From positions 501 to 43,413 of the forward strand of contig JBHEMM010000020.1 in assembly GCA_046262595.1 (NCBI GenBank): DNA of 42,913 nucleotides. Direction: 5' to 3'. The notes under the pieces are model-generated. The model searched no databases and was not told the DNA's origin. It saw only the letters and a list, made by a program, of their open reading frames with translations. The DNA is from Vulcanimicrobiaceae bacterium. Its GTDB lineage: Bacteria; Vulcanimicrobiota; Vulcanimicrobiia; Vulcanimicrobiales; Vulcanimicrobiaceae. The translations under genes were made by a program, and so were the position numbers. Shown one piece after another: positions 33,803 to 42,506 of this stretch. The first letter of the stretch is position 1; each line of letters opens with the position of its first letter.

Positions 33803-35229
33803 CCCCCGGCATTCAGGCAATCACGATCATCGCGGCCGTGGTTCTCGCCACGATCGGCTTCGCGCTTTACGCGGTACGCCGCTTCAAGATGGAGCCGCAG
33901 GAGTTTATCGTCGGCGGACGCTCGTTCGGCGCGCTGCTGCTGTGGATCTTGCTCGCGGGCGAGATTTATACGAGCTTCACGTTTTTGGGCGCCGCCGGCT
34001 ATGCGTACGGGCGGGGCGCGCCCGCATATTACATTATGGCGTACGGCACGGTGGGGTATACGATCGCGTACTTCTATTTGCCCGCAGTGTGGCGCATCGG
34101 CAAGCAGCGTAATCTGATGACATGGCCCGATTTTCTGTTCGACCGTTACGGAAGCAGAGCGCTCGCCGTTACCGTTGCGGTACTGCAGTTCTTCCTCGCG
34201 GTCCCCTACGTTACGCTGCAATTGAGCGGCCTGCAAACGATTTTAACGATCGCCGGATACTCGCAGTTCAACGCGACGGCCGACGTGGGCATCGCGTTTG
34301 TGCTGATGTCGCTTTTCGTGTTCACGGCCGGGCTGCGCGGTGCGGCCTGGGCAAGCGTCATCAAAGACGCGCTGGTTTTGATTGCCGTGCTGTTCGCCGG
34401 AATCTATCTGCCGCTGCATTTTTTCGGCTCGGCCGGCGCGATGTTCGATCGCGTCGCCGCCGCCCATCCGCATTGGCTTTGGCTGCACGCCGGCGGCGCC
34501 CCGTTCGGCACAAACTGGTACGTCTCGACGGTGCTCTTGACGAGCATCGGCTTTTTCATGGGACCGGCGAGCGCGCAATCGATCTTTTCGGCACGCAACG
34601 AGCAGTCCGTGCGGCGCAATATGATGCTCATGCCGATCTATCAACTCGTCATTATCTTCGTTTTACTCGCCGGCTTTACCGCGCTTGTCGTCACGCCCGG
34701 CCTCACGGGTAAGGCCGTCGATCAGTCGTTTCTGCTGCTGCTGCAGCATTATTTTCCGGCCTCGGTGCTCGGTTTCGTGGGCGCTGCCGGGTGCCTGGCG
34801 GCGCTTATCCCGGCTTCCGTGCTGCTTCTGGGCGCGGCCAGCATTTTTTCGAAAAACGTCATCGGGAACACGCGCTACGTGCGCGTGCTCGTGTTGGTTT
34901 GCGCCCTTCTGGCGCTCGTTTTGTGGCTGTTTGCGAGTGCGAATTTGGTGGATCTGCTCTTGTTCTACTACAACGGCATCACGCAGTTTGCGCCGGGTAT
35001 TCTGCTCGCACTGTGTTGGCGGCGCGTGAGCGCCTGGGGCGCCGGAGCGGGACTTGCCGCCGGCGAGCTCGTCGCGTTGTGGTTTCTGCACTCGACCTAT
35101 TCGACGAGCGGTCCGGCCGGTATCAATCCCGGCCTCCTCGCGCTAGCATGCAACGTCGCCGTGCTGGTTGCTGTCACGCTGGTTTTTCCGCGGGCGCAAA
35201 AGTTGCGGGCCGCGAACGACTCGCCCTGA
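33799..35229 (+). CDS. Sodium:solute symporter
   Basis: ATG 33799. EFIVGGRSFG, AGEIYTSFTFLG, PYVTLQLSG, GLRGAAW; multiple transmembrane segments. Confidence 0.85.
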   Translation: MTPGIQAITIIAAVVLATIGFALYAVRRFKMEPQEFIVGGRSFGALLLWILLAGEIYTSFTFLGAAGYAYGRGAPAYYIMAYGTVGYTIAYFYLPAVWRIGKQRNLMTWPDFLFDRYGSRALAVTVAVLQFFLAVPYVTLQLSGLQTILTIAGYSQFNATADVGIAFVLMSLFVFTAGLRGAAWASVIKDALVLIAVLFAGIYLPLHFFGSAGAMFDRVAAAHPHWLWLHAGGAPFGTNWYVSTVLLTSIGFFMGPASAQSIFSARNEQSVRRNMMLMPIYQLVIIFVLLAGFTALVVTPGLTGKAVDQSFLLLLQHYFPASVLGFVGAAGCLAALIPASVLLLGAASIFSKNVIGNTRYVRVLVLVCALLALVLWLFASANLVDLLLFYYNGITQFAPGILLALCWRRVSAWGAGAGLAAGELVALWFLHSTYSTSGPAGINPGLLALACNVAVLVAVTLVFPRAQKLRAANDSP

Positions 35230-37298
35230 CACTTCGCCTCGACGCCGTCCGGATCTGCCGGCGGCTCCGCGCGGAACGGAATGTCGTCAACCGAGTCGAG
35301 CGGTTCGTAGCCGAGCGATCGCGCCCGGTCCAACGACCAAAACGCCGCGCTGTTGTTGGAAATTCCGTAAACGCACGTGTAGCTGACCGGCTCGTGTTCC
35401 AGCGCGGCAAGCAGCAACTGCGCCAGATCGCGCGGACTGATCCAGATCGCCCGGTCTATGTCGTACTGGGGGTGCGCCGCGACGTGCCCAATGCGCAGGC
35501 ACACCACCTCGAGACCGTACTTATCCGCATAGTGCCGCCCCAGCGCTTCGGCGAACACCTTGGAAACCGCGTAGAAGCTGTCGGGCCGCACGGGGGCCGA
35601 TTCGTCAATCGCAATCGCGCGCGGATAGAATCCCGTCACGTGACCGGTGCCCGCCAGCACCACGCGCCGCACGCCTTCAAGGCGCGCCGCTTCCAGCACG
35701 CTATACGTGGCGCGCATGTTGTGCTCGAGCAGACGGTCAAACGAGTTCTCTTTCGAAATCCCGCCCAGATGAACGACCGCACGCGCGCCCCGCATTGTTT
35801 TGCGCGCGGCGTCCACGCTGCGCAGGTCCGCGCGGATGAAGCGGTCTTCGCCTTTGGGGATTTTGAAAGGAACCGCATCGGTTAACCACAACGGCCCGAG
35901 CGCATCGCGCAGGCGATCTCCGACCAGACCAAAGACATTTCCGGCGGCGCCGGTTATCAGCACGGGTCCGCCGTCCGCTGCGGGCGCAGCAACTGCGCGG
36001 CGTTTCTGCACGAGCTCGCGCACAATGGCAACAATGCGCTGCGCGTCCGCGCGCTTGGGAATCCACAGCTGCCCGGGCGGTATGCGCGTCGCGCGGAAAA
36101 ACACAACAGTATTGAACAGGGCCCCGGCAACGTACGTTACGGTTGAGGCCAAAGCGGCGCCGGCCAAACCGAAGCGCGGCACGAGCGCAAAGCACGCCGC
36201 TGTTTGTGCCGCAATCATGACGATGTTGACCGCGGTTACGAGCAGCGGCCGCCCGAGTTGAAAAATGAAAAATGATGCAAACGTGCCGGCACTGCTGAAA
36301 GCAACGATGCCGGGCAAGAGCACGCGCATCGGCGTGGCGGCAGCGTCGAATCGCGCACCGTAGACGGCATGCACGAGCAGCGGCGCAAAGACCGCAAGCG
36401 GCACGGCGCACAGCAAGCAGATAGCAAAGCCGGCGCGCACCACATGCGCGGTGATCTCTGCGGCGCGGCCTTCGCTTGCGACGCCGATTTCTCGCCCAAC
36501 CGCGGCGTTGACCGGGCGAGCGATCATGAACAGCAGCTCGCCGATGCTCACGGCGACGGAGTAAACGCCGAAGACCGGCAAACCCAGCAGCGCGATCAGA
36601 ATGAGCGAATCGACCCGGTAGTTCAGCAGCCCCAAACCGGAGTTCAACGCCGATTGAGCGCCGAATTGCGCGAATTCACGCAGGCGGGCGCCAAGCTCGC
36701 GCCGGTGCAGGCGGCCCGCATCCCGCGCAACGTCCGCAGCAATCGCGACGGCACCGGCGTACAGCGCCAAGAGCCACGCGGCAATGACGCCGGGCGTCTC
36801 GCGGCCGAACGCGAGCGCTGCCGCGGTGAGAGCCAGCGTACCGAACGCAATCGCGATGGATTGAATGTTGAACGTGCGCAGGCGGTCGGCGGCGACGTAA
36901 TAGTTCTGCTGCCAAGCGATGACGACCGACGGCGGCAGGCCGGCCGCAAAACCGATCGCGGCAAGCGTCCATCCGTGGATGCCCGCATAGATTGCGCAGG
37001 CGGCGGTGCAAAACGCCGTAATCAGTCCAAACGTAACGGCGATGGCGGGCAACAGCTCACTTGCGGTGCGCCGCTGCTTCGTCATCAAATACGTTATCGC
37101 CGCGCCCGCGCCGCCCGCGACAGCAACCGGAATTGAAAGCAGCGTTTGCACGCCGCTATAAACGCCTTTGCCCTCGGGGCCGAGCGCGCGAGCGACGATG
37201 ATGCCGGTCAGGACGGCGAATGCGGAAACAAGCAGGCGCGCCGCAAACGTTTGCGCGGCCTTTGCGCCGACTGCGGCGCCGAAGCTGCGTGCGGCCAT
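35097..37298 (-). CDS. Wzx/MOP-type flippase fused to a uronate-dehydrogenase-like extended SDR
   Basis: ATG 37298. Membrane part has IVARALGPEGKG, NYRVD.LIL..LLG...FGVYSVA, VYGARF and LVPRFGLAGAALAS. Soluble part has LITGAAG, VHLGGISKE, RPDSFYAVSK and LRIG. No stop between the two parts. Confidence 0.8.
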   Translation of the reverse strand: MAARSFGAAVGAKAAQTFAARLLVSAFAVLTGIIVARALGPEGKGVYSGVQTLLSIPVAVAGGAGAAITYLMTKQRRTASELLPAIAVTFGLITAFCTAACAIYAGIHGWTLAAIGFAAGLPPSVVIAWQQNYYVAADRLRTFNIQSIAIAFGTLALTAAALAFGRETPGVIAAWLLALYAGAVAIAADVARDAGRLHRRELGARLREFAQFGAQSALNSGLGLLNYRVDSLILIALLGLPVFGVYSVAVSIGELLFMIARPVNAAVGREIGVASEGRAAEITAHVVRAGFAICLLCAVPLAVFAPLLVHAVYGARFDAAATPMRVLLPGIVAFSSAGTFASFFIFQLGRPLLVTAVNIVMIAAQTAACFALVPRFGLAGAALASTVTYVAGALFNTVVFFRATRIPPGQLWIPKRADAQRIVAIVRELVQKRRAVAAPAADGGPVLITGAAGNVFGLVGDRLRDALGPLWLTDAVPFKIPKGEDRFIRADLRSVDAARKTMRGARAVVHLGGISKENSFDRLLEHNMRATYSVLEAARLEGVRRVVLAGTGHVTGFYPRAIAIDESAPVRPDSFYAVSKVFAEALGRHYADKYGLEVVCLRIGHVAAHPQYDIDRAIWISPRDLAQLLLAALEHEPVSYTCVYGISNNSAAFWSLDRARSLGYEPLDSVDDIPFRAEPPADPDGVEAKCQGESFAARNFCARGKTSVTATSTATLHASARRPGLIPAGPLVE

Positions 37299-37299
37299 G

Positions 37300-38412
37300 T
37301 TAGGGGCTGCCAGTGCCCGGCAGGCGCGCGGCGAAGGCGGCGCCGGCGAGCATCCTGCCGCCAAGGACGCGCGCGCGGCGGGCCAGCGTTTGACGCACGC
37401 CGTCGTTGGCGTACGCAGCCGGCAGCGCCAGCGCCGTCGCCGGTCCGCGCAGCCGCCGTCCGTTCGCGTAGTATGCGTCGGTCAAGTGCATGCGTCCGCG
37501 AAACGGACGCGGCAAGCCTTCGCGTTCCAGCGCCCATGCCACATAACGGCGCACGTCCGCTCCAAAGCGCTGCGGCAAACCGGCCATTGCAGCCGCGGCG
37601 CATAATGCCGCCTGCAGCGGTACGCGCTGCACCTTCTCGCGTGCACTGGCCTCCGCAAGCCGATCCAGCAGCGCGGTTTTGCCGTGCACAATCATCGCGA
37701 TCTGCACGACGTCGCCCAAACGGTACAATCCCGCGCCATGCAGCGCAAGATGAAGCGCCGAACCGTACTCATCCAAACGGGTGGCCGGGCCGGCGGGTCC
37801 TTCGATCTGCCGGTGGTAAGGCGCGAGCGCGTCCCAGCCCGTCGCAAGCGTGAAAGAACCGCGCGGCGCCAGGGCAACGTGAAGCTCCAATGCTTTGCTG
37901 AATGCCGGCGAGACGAGCGGCGCGAGATGGTGATGGCGCATGCGGTAACCGGCGGCTACGCCGGGCTGCTCGTACGCATAGCCTGCCGCCGCAAGCGCCG
38001 TTACGGCGGCGTCCGCATCTTGCGGGCGCACCAGCGCGTCGAGGTCGAAGATCTGCGAACGTTCCGCGATCGGATCGCCCGCATAAAGCCGCGCCGAACT
38101 TTTGAGCAAGACGGCCGGAATCCGCGCATCCCGCAGCACGGACACGATCTGCGCGGTCTGCGCGCGCGCTTCAACCGCCTGCAGCGCGAACGTCCCCGCA
38201 TAACGCTGCAGCATGACGCGCAGCGGCCGCAACTCGGGCGCGCCGATGCGGTGCGTGAGGAACGCTTCGAGCAGATACGCGCTGCATTTGTGACGCGCCG
38301 AATGTCCGAACAGCTGCGCGCCCGGAACGGAGTGCAGCGCGGACTTCAGGCGTTCGTGATCTGGCCGCACGAGCGCCGTCATCGCTTCGAACAGCGCGGA
38401 AAACGGCCGCAT
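37300..38412 (-). CDS. Nucleotidyltransferase (NTP_transf_5-like, as found in lasso peptide loci)
   Basis: VLLKS, R...DLDALV and LELH motifs; operon context. Confidence 0.75.
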   Translation of the reverse strand: MRPFSALFEAMTALVRPDHERLKSALHSVPGAQLFGHSARHKCSAYLLEAFLTHRIGAPELRPLRVMLQRYAGTFALQAVEARAQTAQIVSVLRDARIPAVLLKSSARLYAGDPIAERSQIFDLDALVRPQDADAAVTALAAAGYAYEQPGVAAGYRMRHHHLAPLVSPAFSKALELHVALAPRGSFTLATGWDALAPYHRQIEGPAGPATRLDEYGSALHLALHGAGLYRLGDVVQIAMIVHGKTALLDRLAEASAREKVQRVPLQAALCAAAAMAGLPQRFGADVRRYVAWALEREGLPRPFRGRMHLTDAYYANGRRLRGPATALALPAAYANDGVRQTLARRARVLGGRMLAGAAFAARLPGTGSP

Positions 38413-38877
38413 TTAACCGCTCTTCTCCAGAACGATCTCCCGCACGCCGCCGGTAAACGCGATGGGCGGTCCCTCGATAACCGAGCCGTCATGCGAGACC
38501 CACGCATGGCCGTGCAGCCGCTCGCGCGAGTTGCTGCGGTGCTCGATCCCAAAATGCAGGCGAAGCCTTCCGGTATCGCACTGCAGAAAACGGTACAGCG
38601 TCATTGCGCGAATGTAGCACGTGTTATGCCGAGGGAAAAAGCGAACCAGCCAAAAGGCGCGCATCCGCGAAAGCGTTCCCCGATCCGCGCGCCGCAACGC
38701 GCCCTCGCGCAGCGTGCGCACAAACGACGAAAGTTCCGTCTTCGCCATACGGTTAGGTGCCGTCGCGATAAACCATCCCACCTGCACAAAGAGCGGCAGG
38801 TTGCGCGGATGGCCGACGACCGCTCTGAAGCGCTGCGCGATGCCGCGCGGCGTCCAGGGTGGGGCTAACATCTCCAC
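38413..38877 (-). CDS. Lasso peptide B2-type transglutaminase-like leader peptidase (start GTG 38877 or ATG 38871)
   Basis: TCYIRAMTLY (catalytic Cys), LHFGI, GHAWV (catalytic His); about 150 aa. Confidence 0.85.
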   Translation of the reverse strand: MEMLAPPWTPRGIAQRFRAVVGHPRNLPLFVQVGWFIATAPNRMAKTELSSFVRTLREGALRRADRGTLSRMRAFWLVRFFPRHNTCYIRAMTLYRFLQCDTGRLRLHFGIEHRSNSRERLHGHAWVSHDGSVIEGPPIAFTGGVREIVLEKSG

Positions 38878-39746
38878 CGCCGCCGTTCGCGCGCGCTGTA
38901 AAATGTCGCGATAAAGCCTGCCTGCTGTGCCGCCGCGCGCACCAGCCCGCCTTTACGCAATACCGCCGTATCGCCATGCGCGGGAACGGCGGCGTAAACG
39001 GCCTTCACCAACACGTCACCGGCGGCGCGCGTCTGGTGCAGCACATTCCACCGCATAGCCGACCGGTGCGCCAGCACGAACTGCGCGTATCCGACGCCAT
39101 AGAAGAACTGCTGCCGCCAGTACGCGCGCCACGTCCGGCGGTGACGGTGCATGACCAGCGCGCGCGGCTCGTAAACGAATGGTCCATCGTGCAGCCGCCG
39201 CATTCGCGTGTGGAGATCGCAGGCGTCGTACGTGGCAAAGCGCGCGTCGAACCCGCCCGCTTCCTGAACATACGCTTTACGGTATAAGGCGTTGCTCGTC
39301 GGTGCGAATGGGAAACGCGGATGCCGCAGCGAGCGGATAGGGTCGAGTCCGCCCATCAGATCGACGAACCGCGCCGCGGGCGTCGCCGATTGAAAACCCG
39401 TCGTTTTACCTGCTGCACCCAACGCGCCGGGTTCGCGCTCTGCGGCGCGCACGAGTGAGGCGAGCCAACCCCGCGAACACACGCAATCACTGTCGGTGAA
39501 CGCGATCCACGCGCCTGCAGCGTGCGCAATTCCGGTGTTTCGCGCCGCCGGCGCGCCGGCATTGCGCTGACGTATCACCTGTACGCCGCACGCTTTCGCG
39601 ATTTCCGCCGAATTGTCGGTGGACCCGTCGTCGACCACGATGATCTCGTACTGGTCTCTCGCAAGCGTTTGATACGCCAGCGAGCGCAGGCACTCTGCGA
39701 GCGTATCGGCGCCGTTGTATACCGGAATAACCACCGAAACGTTCAT
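38865..39746 (-). CDS. Glycosyltransferase family 2
   Basis: ATG 39746. VSVVIPVYN, VDDGSTD, ARNTG, FTDSD, GGFD. Confidence 0.9.
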   Translation of the reverse strand: MNVSVVIPVYNGADTLAECLRSLAYQTLARDQYEIIVVDDGSTDNSAEIAKACGVQVIRQRNAGAPAARNTGIAHAAGAWIAFTDSDCVCSRGWLASLVRAAEREPGALGAAGKTTGFQSATPAARFVDLMGGLDPIRSLRHPRFPFAPTSNALYRKAYVQEAGGFDARFATYDACDLHTRMRRLHDGPFVYEPRALVMHRHRRTWRAYWRQQFFYGVGYAQFVLAHRSAMRWNVLHQTRAAGDVLVKAVYAAVPAHGDTAVLRKGGLVRAAAQQAGFIATFYSARERRRWRC

Positions 39747-40636
39747 GCGCCGCCCCTGCGCACGTGCCACGCGCGCAAACCGAAGCCGAGCCAAAAGTTT
39801 TTGGTCCAGAGCGACTGGTAGCGCAGAAACTCCGCCCGCCGTTGGTCGAGGATGCCGAAAGCGCAGCCCGCGGCGGCAGCCGCTGGCGTGAGCGCGCGCG
39901 AAAGCAGGACACCGCACAACCGCAGGGCTTTCGCCGCGTCCCACTGCACTTCGCAGGGGTACATGCGGTAAAGATCGGCAACGCCGGCGCCGTAACTGCG
40001 CGCTTGGCGCCGCAACGCGGCGTCATCGGCGCGCGCGCGATGGTAGAGCACCGCATCCGCACAATAGACGACGCCCTCGCCGTACGCGCGCTGCAGGCGG
40101 TATGAAAAATCGACGTCTTCGCCCGTGAGCAGCGCTTCGTTCCAGCCGCCCACGGCGCGGGCCGCAGCAGCACGCACGGCCAAATTGAGCGAGGGAGCGA
40201 ACGGAAAAGGCTTGCGCGCGGCGGCAATCTGCGCATCGTATAGACCCGCAGCTTGGACGTAACGTTCCGCCGGTGTTTGCGGCGGATAACACAGCGTATG
40301 CCCTGAGACGAGCACCGTCTCGGGCTCGGCAAACGGCTTGACGATCTCGCTCAGCCACCGGCGGCTGGGCACCGTATCGGCATCGAGATGTACGACGATC
40401 GCGCCCTGCGCGGCACGCAAGCCGCAGTTTCTTGCTGCAGCCGGCCCCCGCCGGATCTCGTCGAGAACGCGCGCGCCCGATGCGTGCGCGAGCGCCTTCG
40501 TGCCGTCTGTCGAGCCGTTGTCCACGACGATCAGCTCGAAAGCCGGCGGCCGCGCCTGCGAGCGCAGCGCGCGAAGCGTTTCACCCAGCGTCGATTCCGC
40601 GTTCAACGCCGGGATAACGACCGAAACGTCCGTCAT
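39743..40636 (-). CDS. Glycosyltransferase family 2
   Basis: VSVVIPALN, VDNGSTD, ARNCG, HLDAD, GEDVDF. Confidence 0.9.
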   Translation of the reverse strand: MTDVSVVIPALNAESTLGETLRALRSQARPPAFELIVVDNGSTDGTKALAHASGARVLDEIRRGPAAARNCGLRAAQGAIVVHLDADTVPSRRWLSEIVKPFAEPETVLVSGHTLCYPPQTPAERYVQAAGLYDAQIAAARKPFPFAPSLNLAVRAAAARAVGGWNEALLTGEDVDFSYRLQRAYGEGVVYCADAVLYHRARADDAALRRQARSYGAGVADLYRMYPCEVQWDAAKALRLCGVLLSRALTPAAAAAGCAFGILDQRRAEFLRYQSLWTKNFWLGFGLRAWHVRRGGA

Positions 40637-41616
40637 CGCAACGCATCCTCAATGCCGGCGAGCCATCCGGAGCTCCGGTAGGCATCTTGGCCGATTTCGA
40701 GGCGCACGCCGCGCATGCCGCGCAGCGCGGCCATCGTTTGCGTGAGCGTCCAGCGCGCAACCGGCGCATCGCACGGAAGCACAATTTGCCGCAGCAGCGC
40801 GGCCGCGCTTTGCGAGACCGTCATCGGCGCGGACCGGATGCCTGCGTGCGCTGCGGTGCGAGCAACTTCTACGATGTGCGTCGGCCGGGCGTGCGGCCGG
40901 GCTGCGCCGGGACGAACCCTATCGAGGTGAACGCGGCGCTTGTCCGTCCAGGCGGAGTAACGCGGCAGCGAAGCGAGGTCGCGTAAATCGAACCAGCGCC
41001 CTGTGGCCGGGTCTAAGTTAAACGTTTGCAGCAAAGAGCGCAGAACGGGCTTACCGCCTTCATTGCGCAGGAGCAGTTTATCATCCCCGAGCGTCGACCA
41101 CCCGTTTAAGACGAGCGCCGTCGTCAGCGTGCTTTTTCCGCCCCCCGATGCAGCGCACAGCAGCGCGCACACATCGCCCTTAACCACGGCGCCCGCATGC
41201 AGCGCCACGAAACCCTCGTTTCGCCAACCCGCGGTACAAATGAGCGAAAACACGTCTTCCATGTCGCCGACTTGCGGCTCGTCGAAAACCGTTTCCGGTG
41301 GAACGGAGATCGTCCAAACGTCTGTACCTGCAACGGTGGAACCGCGGGCGACGAAGCCGTACTGCGTATCGGCAACATACGAATCGCCCGTGCGGTCGAC
41401 CGTCATGTGCGCGCAGGAAACGAACGTTCCGCTTGCGCGCACACCCAGCGCCCGGCGTTCCAAGTGCACCTCGACGCGGCGCGTGCGCTCTCTCCACGTC
41501 CGGCTGAACAGCGAGACATAGTTGCAGGCGACGGCAGCGAGCTCGCCGTCGGCTGCGCTAATGCTCAGGTCCAACGGCCCGCAACTGCCGGTAATGCGCT
41601 CGACCGCGGCCAGCAT
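40633..41616 (-). CDS. HPr-kinase-like P-loop Ser/Thr kinase (lasso peptide kinase-like)
   Basis: ALHAGAV, Walker A ASGGGKSTLT, LGDD motif. Confidence 0.8.
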   Translation of the reverse strand: MLAAVERITGSCGPLDLSISAADGELAAVACNYVSLFSRTWRERTRRVEVHLERRALGVRASGTFVSCAHMTVDRTGDSYVADTQYGFVARGSTVAGTDVWTISVPPETVFDEPQVGDMEDVFSLICTAGWRNEGFVALHAGAVVKGDVCALLCAASGGGKSTLTTALVLNGWSTLGDDKLLLRNEGGKPVLRSLLQTFNLDPATGRWFDLRDLASLPRYSAWTDKRRVHLDRVRPGAARPHARPTHIVEVARTAAHAGIRSAPMTVSQSAAALLRQIVLPCDAPVARWTLTQTMAALRGMRGVRLEIGQDAYRSSGWLAGIEDALR

Positions 41617-41617
41617 G

Positions 41618-42022
41618 CTACTCGGCCAGCGGTATGCTGGGATCGAACGCGCTGGTTACGACGCTTTGCAGCGGTTCAGCGTGACGTTCGATGGTGGGCG
41701 CAACCCAAGGCGCCGCGTATGTGGCGACCTCGGGCGCGGCATCCTCAGTGGACGGCTCGAGCAAATTCTCCGCCGATAAGTGCGCGAGAAAGCTGCGGAC
41801 TTCGTCCTCGCCGCTCGCGCCCCACAGGATGCATTGCCGCACGATCCGTTCCGGCGACGCGCCGGAGATCTCGAACAACTGCACGATTGCCCATGCCGAC
41901 CGGTTGAGCGAATAAAAGTACTTGGTTTCAAGGTCCAGCAGAACGGCGCCGCCTTCGACGACCGTAGCAACAAGCGCGGGCCGCAAGGCAACGGCCGCGG
42001 CGCGTATATCCGTCCCGATCAT
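41618..42022 (-). CDS. PqqD/RRE domain protein with a C-terminal leader/core-like peptide extension
   Basis: GGAGGGG RBS 7 nt before ATG 42022. RRE signature AVLLDLETKYFYSLNRSAWAIVQL...EVRSFLAHLSAENLLE, then the tail YAAPWVAPTIERHAEPLQSVVTSAFDPSIPLAE. Confidence 0.85.
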   Translation of the reverse strand: MIGTDIRAAAVALRPALVATVVEGGAVLLDLETKYFYSLNRSAWAIVQLFEISGASPERIVRQCILWGASGEDEVRSFLAHLSAENLLEPSTEDAAPEVATYAAPWVAPTIERHAEPLQSVVTSAFDPSIPLAE

Positions 42023-42044
42023 AACTTTTCCCCTCCGTGCGAAC

Positions 42045-42188: not shown

Positions 42189-42506
42189 TTAGCGGTAAGA
42201 CGGGCGCGATGCAAAGCAGTCGCGGCAATATACGGGCTTGTCGCCGCGCGGCTGAAACGGAACTTCCGCAACGCCGCCGCACTGGCTGCATGTGGCTTGG
42301 AACATTTCCCGACGCGCACCGCCGCCGGCGCCCACGCCGCCGCCGCCTCCCGAACTGGTGCGCATTTGCTTGCGCGCCGTACGGCAATCGGGGCAACGGT
42401 TCGGCTTATTCTGAAAACCTTTTTGAGCGTAAAACTGCTGTTCACCCGAAGTGAACGCGAACTCACGTCCGCAGTCGACACAGTTCAGCATTTCATCAAC
42501 GTACAC
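42189..42506 (-). CDS. Zinc-ribbon plus CxxC-x17-CxxC domain protein
   Basis: CVDC...EQQFYAQKGF...RCPDC, Gly-rich linker, CSQC-x17-CRDC; GGGAG RBS. Confidence 0.9.
   Translation of the reverse strand: MYVDEMLNCVDCGREFAFTSGEQQFYAQKGFQNKPNRCPDCRTARKQMRTSSGGGGGVGAGGGARREMFQATCSQCGGVAEVPFQPRGDKPVYCRDCFASRPSYR

Follow-up and report, generated by a model that had tools for sequence, protein, structure and literature searches.

Several described systems resemble the locus analysed here. The LPP system (linear polyphosphorylated peptides of Bacillota; LppA/K/B/S/D/N, PMC13381572) comprises an RRE, a leader with an aromatic-x-x-P motif, an HprK-like kinase and an uncharacterised NTP transferase, is described without a cyclase, places the leader aromatic 18 positions before a conserved Ser, and shows a patchy spread and a glycosyltransferase-rich context, all of which resembles our locus; unlike our locus, it has a discrete RRE, its precursor is a separate peptide whose core varies, and it employs a protease of the signal-peptidase type together with an MsbA-like pump. 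The phospho-lasso clusters, i.e. Bsf (PMC10368454), pseudomycoidin (PMC6993621) and the paeninodin-like Pba, share with our locus a B1-type RRE, a B2 protease, an HprK kinase and a PsmN-like transferase, and Bsf also has Ile/Val at -2 and a Ser near its core's N-terminal end. PsmN, an uncharacterised nucleotidyltransferase, is required for the hexoses found on phospho-Ser (PMC6993621). Fosfazinomycin biosynthesis (FzmZ/F/K/U, preprint PMC13622209) likewise involves a YxxP scaffold, kinases, a nucleotidyltransferase that works as a ligase (FzmU, which ligates a triphosphate-like substrate made by a kinase) and a conserved C-terminal attachment residue, but the scaffold is a free 22-mer, an asparagine-synthetase-like enzyme takes part, the cargo is a phosphonate, and a GT2 is absent from the pathway as described.

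Fusion of a biosynthetic protein in frame to its own core peptide is known from borosins of types I-III (PMC8429565), in which the fused part is a catalytic N-methyltransferase that acts on the other subunit. An RRE-like protein stands N-terminal to a precursor in the engineered PlpY-PlpA3 spliceotide fusions (PMC11414181), which are, however, man-made and employ rSAM chemistry, and the natural RRE fusions named in the same source are fusions to enzymes. The RRE-Finder work (including PMC12710340) presents, in its accessible parts, fusions of RREs to enzymes as well as a large number of long PqqD proteins that lack an explanation, with 21% of PF05402 proteins exceeding the length of a discrete RRE yet having no other Pfam domain, and not a design that joins an RRE to a precursor. 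A natural fusion of this kind, i.e. an RRE that carries its own precursor, was not found in print in the accessible literature; large supplementary datasets may list such proteins. The motifs FDPSIPLAE, FDPQLPLAE, DPIHEV, DPIHDV and LLLDPIH gave no match in the literature searched, nor did one 12-kb supplement of PMC12710340.

The window considered here, i.e. the whole stretch of 42,913 nucleotides analysed from a Vulcanimicrobiaceae contig, carries on its minus strand a compact operon of six genes (about 4.7 kb; Table 1), in which the five genes after the first overlap or abut. As read from the sequence, the first ORF starts with the ATG at 42022 and stops 1 nt ahead of the kinase ATG; a search of the sequence upstream of it brought up no consensus of a sigma-70 promoter or a terminator, a negative that we do not count as evidence. 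That this single ORF unites an RRE, a leader motif of its own and a conserved core had been claimed in a first-pass annotation of the DNA, and the claim is borne out by a PF05402 match and by an alignment of 114 homologues; the tail it had spelled out, EPSTEDAAPE-VAT-YAAPWVAPTI...VVTSAFDPSIPLAE*, is present, with AFDPSIPLAE at 41650-41621. Compared with borosins, the fused part is a non-catalytic RRE, the enzymes are separate genes, and a fused SAM-dependent alpha-N-methyltransferase is absent. A double zinc-finger gene (CxxC-x17-CxxC, treble-clef) lies upstream on the strand of the operon and has two paralogues elsewhere in the genome; since it occurs in 0 of the 58 related loci, we place it outside the cassette.

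Table 1. Features of the fusion ORF, its operon and the adjoining genes (positions in the window)
Feature	Position	Strand	Remarks
Double zinc-finger gene	42189-42506	-	upstream of the operon
GGAGG Shine-Dalgarno-like site	42032..42036	-	9 nt upstream of ATG 42022, from sequence
RRE-precursor fusion ORF (P0001), 134 aa	41618..42022	-	first gene of operon
RRE (PqqD-fold) domain, residues ~10-91	41750..41995	-	invariant F36, N40, W44
Variable linker, residues 92-105	41708..41749	-	L87-to-W106 spacing 16-26 residues
Leader motif W106-x-x-P109-x-I111	41690..41707	-	predicted RRE-cleft occupant
E116-P117-L118 motif	41669..41677	-	opens short predicted helix 119-125 (DSSP)
V121, candidate P2 residue	41660..41662	-	inferred if W106 = -17 as in lasso leaders
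Near-invariant core end S124-AFDPSIPLA-E134	41621..41653	-	mean column identity 0.95
HprK-like P-loop kinase	40633..41616	-	H140, GGGKST 158-163, DD 178-179; TIGR04352 E 1.5e-10, below cut-off
GT2 glycosyltransferase a	39743..40636	-	best NCBIfam match MftF, below cut-off
GT2 glycosyltransferase b	38865..39746	-	best NCBIfam match MftF, below cut-off
Lasso-B2-like transglutaminase-fold Cys protease	38413..38877	-	C87, H124, probably E135
PF14907 uncharacterised nucleotidyltransferase	37300..38412	-	Pfam match
Wzx-like membrane protein + NAD-dependent epimerase/dehydrogenase fusion; accessory	35097..37364	-	PF01943, PF01370

The PF05402 (PqqD) match covers residues 26-88 of the fusion ORF with 23.9 bits, against a Pfam cut-off of 23.4, and the AlphaFold2 model computed on the homologue alignment (mean pLDDT 85.8) has, by DSSP, the PqqD-like three-stranded sheet with three helices. 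The modelled RRE fits TbiB1 (5v1u) with Z 9.9 and an rmsd of 2.2 A over 80 residues, and the top Foldseek matches are TbiB1 and TfuB1, the lasso B1 proteins to which the predicted fold is nearest; a search of the ESM Atlas with the tail returned only a feature match below threshold (0.80) and, by structure, a PqqD cluster. In the model, residues 101-110 reach a pLDDT of 94 and are followed by a strand at 111-114 and a helix at 119-125, and residues 121-134 are at ~53. Because a high-confidence segment thus reappears past the variable linker and brings a lone added strand, the WxxP segment is predicted, from pLDDT and DSSP, to be ordered and docked on the edge strand of the RRE, as had been anticipated for WVAPTI. 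N40 (114/114) is, by its position, probably the counterpart of the LppB Asn that fixes the proline kink of the leader (PMC13381572).

The search for homologues yielded 115 proteins at E ≤ 1e-3 among 211 candidates, nearly all of 117-149 aa, and 114 of them were aligned, P0081 being omitted owing to its long N-terminal extension. W106, P109, P117, L118, F126, D127, P128, P131 and E134 are each kept in 114/114, all of these proteins have W106 at 29 residues from the C-terminus, and residue 111 is I, V, L or M throughout (114/114). Mean column identity amounts to 0.64 in the RRE, 0.66 in residues 106-118 and 0.95 in residues 124-134, so that the last 11 residues of the tail are better conserved than the RRE itself (0.95 versus 0.64). 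The linker (residues 88-105) has a mean identity of 0.30, and the acidic stretch EPSTEDAAPE, singled out earlier, is not a shared trait. Of the proposed leader motif YAAP-WVAPTI, the WxxPxI half stands (W and P 114/114) and YAAP does not (Y102 14/114, P105 44/114); since neither YAAP nor the acidic linker is conserved, only WxxPxI is taken as the leader motif. A [WY]xxPx[ILVM] motif within the last 35 residues is found in only 63 of the 9,257 long six-frame ORFs of the genome, i.e. its occurrence in the tail is far from chance. In one protein, P0144, the RRE ends directly past the WxxPxI motif, giving a leader without a core, which is either a variant or a fragment.

As a word-seeded protein search may favour the tail, an RRE-only profile was built from 30 segments and run without a word index as a tail-blind search. 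Fourteen of its top 22 matches end in the same tail, from which it follows that the tail travels with the RRE clade of the fusion; the other eight have short or unrelated ends, two of them ending inside the tail, and by their sequences look like fragments or frameshifts. In an RRE-only tree of 69 rows and 97 columns, whose bootstrap had not settled, the fusion family forms a clade at 100/96 and the DPIH family (see below) a clade at 98/83, and a single origin of the fusion is not resolved.

The site at which the tail would be cut depends on the register in which it is read. The leader aromatic is at -17 in Bsf and in most lasso leaders (PMC10368454), at -16 in LppA and at -15 in PbaA (PMC13381572), and these three registers (Y-17, Y-16 and W-15) imply three different cut sites for the fusion tail. 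With W106 at -17, P2 would be Val/Ile121, the core would start at 123, and Ser124 would lie inside it; with W106 at -16, the core would start at 122, and Ser124 would become Ser3, the position phosphorylated by LppK. The 18 positions from W106 to S124 equal the spacing between Tyr-16 and phospho-Ser3 of LppA, and BsfA combines Tyr-17, Ile-2 and phospho-Ser3 (PMC10368454). Residue 121 is Val, Ile or Leu in 54, 47 and 13 of the 114 homologues, respectively (V/I in 101/114). Ser124 is present in 105/114 homologues, with T or N in the other nine, and in 56/57 tails from genome loci (the window and 56 loci, L056 and L058 having no match to the tail pattern); LppK does not accept S3T (PMC13381572). 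Phe36 of the RRE (114/114) aligns with a Tyr column of TfuB1, probably Tyr33 when numbered via the structural match to TbiB1; Tyr33 of lasso B1 proteins is the proposed binder of Thr-2 and is not conserved in Ile-2 systems (PMC10368454). A Phe in place of this Tyr would weakly fit an aliphatic P2, and sister families without a protease retain the Tyr in 12/13 and 35/35 sequences.

The first-pass annotation had taken Thr123 as P2, with B2 cutting after Ser124 and with the released 10-mer AFDPSIPLAE phosphorylated on Ser129, a model that we consider very improbable. It would place W106 at -19, compared with -15 to -17 in PMC13381572 and PMC10368454, and the rule of a conserved Thr at -2 fails, residue 123 being Thr in 48, Val in 47, Ile in 7, Ser in 6, Asn in 5 and Lys in 1 of the 114 homologues, and Thr in only 22/57 genome-locus tails, where Ala and Met also occur. 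The block A125-E134 is admittedly the most invariant one, residue 123 is beta-branched (T/V/I) in 102/114, and residue 129 is S/T in 111/114. An Ala is also a common first residue of lasso cores. Ser129 itself is found in 99/114 homologues and is kept less well than Ser124 among the genome loci (47/57 against 56/57), Ser124 moreover matching the LPP register; three proteins have R or N at 129, and three complete cassettes with kinase, GT2s, NTase and B2 (L028, L033, L042) have Gly129, and a cut after Ser124 would leave their 10-mer devoid of hydroxyl residues. Of the residues chosen for checking in the tail alignment, WxxP thus proved invariant, Thr123 did not, and DPS held in part (D127 and P128 in 114/114, Ser129 as above). 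The tail has two Ser (124 and 129), and the 'single Ser' attributed to the product would be correct only for a cut after Ser124. The 10-mer indeed has no Asp/Glu at positions 7-9 (P/L/A), but whether a lasso is precluded hinges on where the tail is cut: Asp127 would be core position 3, 5, 6 or 7 for a core starting at 125, 123, 122 or 121, the last of these being a 14-mer with the Asp at position 7. What really speaks against a lasso is the absence of a cyclase.

A macrolactam cyclase was found in 0/57 loci with an AsnB query. Of the 33 carrier genomes, 15 gave nothing for PF00733 (Asn_synthase) at E ≤ 1e-8, and where a match shared its contig with the fusion locus, the closest one was ~144 kb away; the only full PF00733 match of the source genome is a glutamine-hydrolysing AsnB on another contig, below the cyclase cut-off. 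The earlier observation that the cyclase is missing is thereby upheld, and a remotely encoded one was ruled out by these genome-wide PF00733 searches of the source and carrier genomes.

A free-standing precursor elsewhere had been named as the finding that would overturn the fusion, and no recurrent one came to light in the source genome or the 57 loci. The tail profile retrieved only the fusion itself from the source genome (next match E 0.97). Among the 57 loci and one region of the source genome, 49 short ORFs bear the motif, and two recurrent sets emerged from them, both rejected as free precursors, one being antisense to a GT2 and the other belonging to a separate SpI cassette. A natural split form was sought among proteins of 30-72 aa, but the three matches all start in the end of the RRE or in the linker and are read as fragments.

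These data bear on the possibility that the tail is a built-in pseudo-leader, which serves to maintain the fold of the RRE or to activate the kinase and protease, the real substrate being another protein or peptide supplied in trans. Some RREs are indeed insoluble without a leader (PMC13381572) and RREs can activate enzymes (PMC11414181), and in the source genome PqqD is matched twice more, while a free YxxP precursor is encoded in a different cassette. That precursor, however, is accompanied by an RRE, kinases and a signal-peptidase-like protease of its own (a peptidase found in 4/57 loci), and the fusion is the only PqqD match in two carrier genomes, with none at E ≤ 1e-3 in four others. Since it would also leave unexplained why conservation peaks in the disordered end past the docking site, we regard the pseudo-leader as quite improbable, and the tail is, in our view, quite probably the substrate of the operon.

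The other cassette (G000:C16:9650-14170, L108:2651-7171) is LPP-like: a YxxP precursor of 58 aa is encoded there as a free peptide, together with two HprK-like proteins, a discrete RRE, an ABC-2 permease and a signal-peptidase-I/nucleotidyltransferase fusion. Precursors related to its own occur at L046:6029-6151 and L025:3434-3823. LPPs have been called restricted to Bacillota (PMC13381572), and in view of this cassette their range may extend further. The third PqqD match above the cut-off in the source genome is at G000:C1:74716-74901.

The enzymes encoded behind the fusion are consistently found with it. The 58 related loci from the genome collection are spread over many phyla, the carriers comprising Eremiobacterota/Vulcanimicrobiota, Chloroflexota, Alpha- and Gammaproteobacteria, Desulfosarcinaceae, Syntrophobacteraceae, Terriglobia, Verrucomicrobia, Actinomycetes/Acidimicrobiia, Phycisphaeraceae, Binatia and Gemmatimonadota; the spread is patchy, with a strong match in 8/201 genomes of the phylum of the window. 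In L001-L057 the kinase is present in 53/57, GT2 in 53/57, NTase in 49/57 and B2 in 48/57 loci, mostly in the gene order of the window, as judged with context profiles built partly from the same loci and with most misses at contig ends; L018 keeps the tail, GT2s and NTase, with kinase and B2 truly absent. The His, P-loop and DD motifs of the kinase are conserved. Two genomes have two operon copies with different tails (L045, L047, L024 and L036), one copy being rearranged and adjoining an SpI-NTase fusion.

The B2-like protein matches PF13471 with 37.2 bits (cut-off 26) and NF033537 with 29.4, just below the cut-off of 33, and has C87 and H124 in 42/42 and E135 in 36/42 aligned sequences; its model (pLDDT 89) gave no clear structural match (best Z 5.6) and its sequence no relevant match in the PDB, which is uninformative. 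Its membership in a transglutaminase-like family raises the question whether its activity might be that of a transpeptidase or transglutaminase, by which the protein or peptide, once modified, would be attached to a cell-surface amine instead of being released. Accessory Wzx-like and polysaccharide genes adjoin the operon in a subset of loci, and LPP and paeninodin clusters lie in capsule loci, but characterised members of the B2 family are leader peptidases (PMC10885120) and no conserved acceptor was found near the operon, which makes surface linkage extremely improbable.

The locus can be compared with lasso systems and with LPPs. Like lasso systems, it has a [Y/W]xxPx[L/I/V] motif, with binding predicted, and a B2-like peptidase with Cys/His, whereas an operon cyclase and a conserved Thr(-2) are absent; it further differs from the phospho-lasso clusters in having no separate A gene and in its dedicated GT2 pair. 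Like LPPs, it has an HprK-like kinase and an uncharacterised NTP transferase, but precursor and RRE form one chain with a near-invariant core, the protease is lasso-B2-like, and two GT2s belong to the operon. An SpI/SipW-like leader peptidase is not encoded in the operon, the 4/57 loci that contain one having it from a separate cassette. Neither a discrete RRE with a free variable-core precursor nor, by ORF list and Pfam, an MsbA-like exporter was found in the operon of the window. Recurrent transporter-type neighbours are Wzx-like or of ABC-2 type, each in subsets of loci; the Wzx-like/epimerase family occurs in 15/58 loci and the window, and the PF01943 match of the window's protein is weak (E 1.2e-4, below cut-off). 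The system thus works like the LPP and phospho-lasso machinery and fails membership of both, because it has no cyclase, no SpI and no discrete RRE or precursor.

The reading that we tentatively favour, at somewhat under an even chance, is an RRE that carries its own leader and core, the core being phosphoglycosylated at Ser124 and released as a linear 12-13-mer. W106, P109 and I111 are predicted to fill pockets of the RRE and residues 111-114 to pair as a strand, so that the single chain would amount to a pre-assembled RRE-leader complex. By analogy with LppK and BsfK, the HprK-like kinase would then phosphorylate, or polyphosphorylate, Ser124; the PF14907 enzyme would, as PsmN and FzmU suggest, use the phosphorylated Ser for a Ser-phosphate-sugar link, to be built or extended by the two GT2s. 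The B2-like Cys protease would dock on the RRE and cut the tail either after 122 (lasso -17 register, Val/Ile121 as P2) or after 121 (LPP -16 register), giving (V)TSAFDPSIPLAE, a product that would be linear as there is no cyclase; in a subset of loci it might be exported by the Wzx-like protein. If the tail is the substrate, a B2 cut upstream of Ser124 is reasonably probable, and given such a cut, whether the phosphate on Ser124 is the anchor is evenly balanced.

The tail-blind search also revealed two related families of RRE-tail fusions, which constitute the chief evidence against release of a phosphoglycopeptide. The FDPQLPLAE family, with the tail ..PxLxKHDEPL..PFDPQLPLAE, aligns end to end with that of the window and keeps the Asp and the terminal PLAE in 13/13 sequences, with both Ser lost. 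No B2 occurs in any of its 26 metagenome loci, most of which are short, and the five of at least 8 kb are no exception; GT2 is present in 21 of the 26, NTase in 5 and a kinase in 4. The four kinase-bearing loci (L067, L068, L070, L086) have no Ser/Thr past the leader motif and their kinases retain the His, P-loop and DD motifs; several Ser-bearing tails of the family directly precede GT2, with no kinase seen. The DPIH family, with the tail FxxPxLEKFTDM..LLDPIHEVD..GWP, has the Asp-Pro and the His in 79/79 sequences and no conserved Ser. B2 is likewise missing from all of its 11 loci, of which 10 have GT2, 9 a kinase and 8 the NTase; PF13471 is absent or distant in the five genomes of this family that were tested, two having no match at all. 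All three families have GT2 and PF14907 as partners, genes that the first-pass annotation of the tail leaves unmentioned. The fused RRE-tail design is therefore general, but with Ser-free tails and no B2 among the sister families, a Ser anchor cannot be a universal feature, and nor can the protease; the window adds to this design a protease-bearing branch with a near-invariant core and a corrected register.

Further tails of this kind were noted. P0141, P0151, P0159 and P0174, which are 269-295 aa long, have two RREs in tandem followed by a tail YxxPxL..DM..LL.[IL]DPP, by their sequences another variant of the fused design. In L058 (9330-9710), near a contig end with the operon not in view, the leader-like tail of an RRE (FxxP..EEPL..) is shorter and breaks off at the Asp. 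On contig C11 of one genome (G202), a DPIH-family locus (L119) and a locus of the window's family (L014) lie about 325 kb apart, and the DPIH loci L119, L122 and L125 also have a radical SAM/SPASM gene.

What the three families share would be explained if the fusion were a self-presenting carrier or primer of a glycan, with the sugar chain on the carboxylate of Asp127 or of the C-terminal Glu134, which with S124 are the candidate attachment sites in the core end. The NTase would activate the carboxylate, the kinase would act on the sugar or the carboxylate, and B2 would be an optional step of unloading or transfer. C-terminal-Glu carriers such as LysW would provide a precedent. The invariance of D127, P128 and E134 agrees with such a carrier, as do the Asp and terminal PLAE kept in the Ser-less FDPQLPLAE tails, the Asp-Pro and His of the DPIH family with its lack of a conserved Ser, the GT2 and PF14907 common to all three, the lack of B2 in 26 and 11 sister loci and of PF13471 in two DPIH-family genomes, and the intact kinases beside Ser-free tails. 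Nevertheless, Ser124 is kept in 56/57 genome loci in the register of the LPP phospho-Ser, B2 with its Cys/His intact is present in 48/57, the Asp-Pro of the DPIH family lies three residues nearer the leader and is left unaligned by hhalign, which aligns no further than residue 115, and the RRE tree does not settle on a single origin. We consider the glycan carrier unlikely, and retain release of a phosphoglycosylated core as the favoured reading.

The invariance of the core across phyla hints at a partner that does not change, and less at a toxin shaped by an arms race. It is possible, though on the doubtful side, that these proteins represent an undescribed RiPP-like class of several phyla, in which the RRE is its own precursor, a (phospho)glycan is placed on a C-terminal tag and, in the branch described here, a lasso-type protease releases it. 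In that case the PF14907 enzymes would gain a defined reaction, and a single conserved glycopeptide would occur in Eremiobacterota and as far afield as Proteobacteria, Chloroflexota and Verrucomicrobiota. That many PqqD 'orphans' of 120-150 aa show no precursor would then be accounted for, since it probably lies inside them, and genome-mining tools that seek a short ORF would miss this fused class. Being compact, with one soluble substrate and a near-invariant core, the operon offers a direct test bed; it bears on questions raised by LPPs and pseudomycoidin, namely the role of the PF14907 transferase and the nature of the final phosphoglycopeptide, and a natural RRE-leader-core chain would be a ready scaffold for RiPP engineering.
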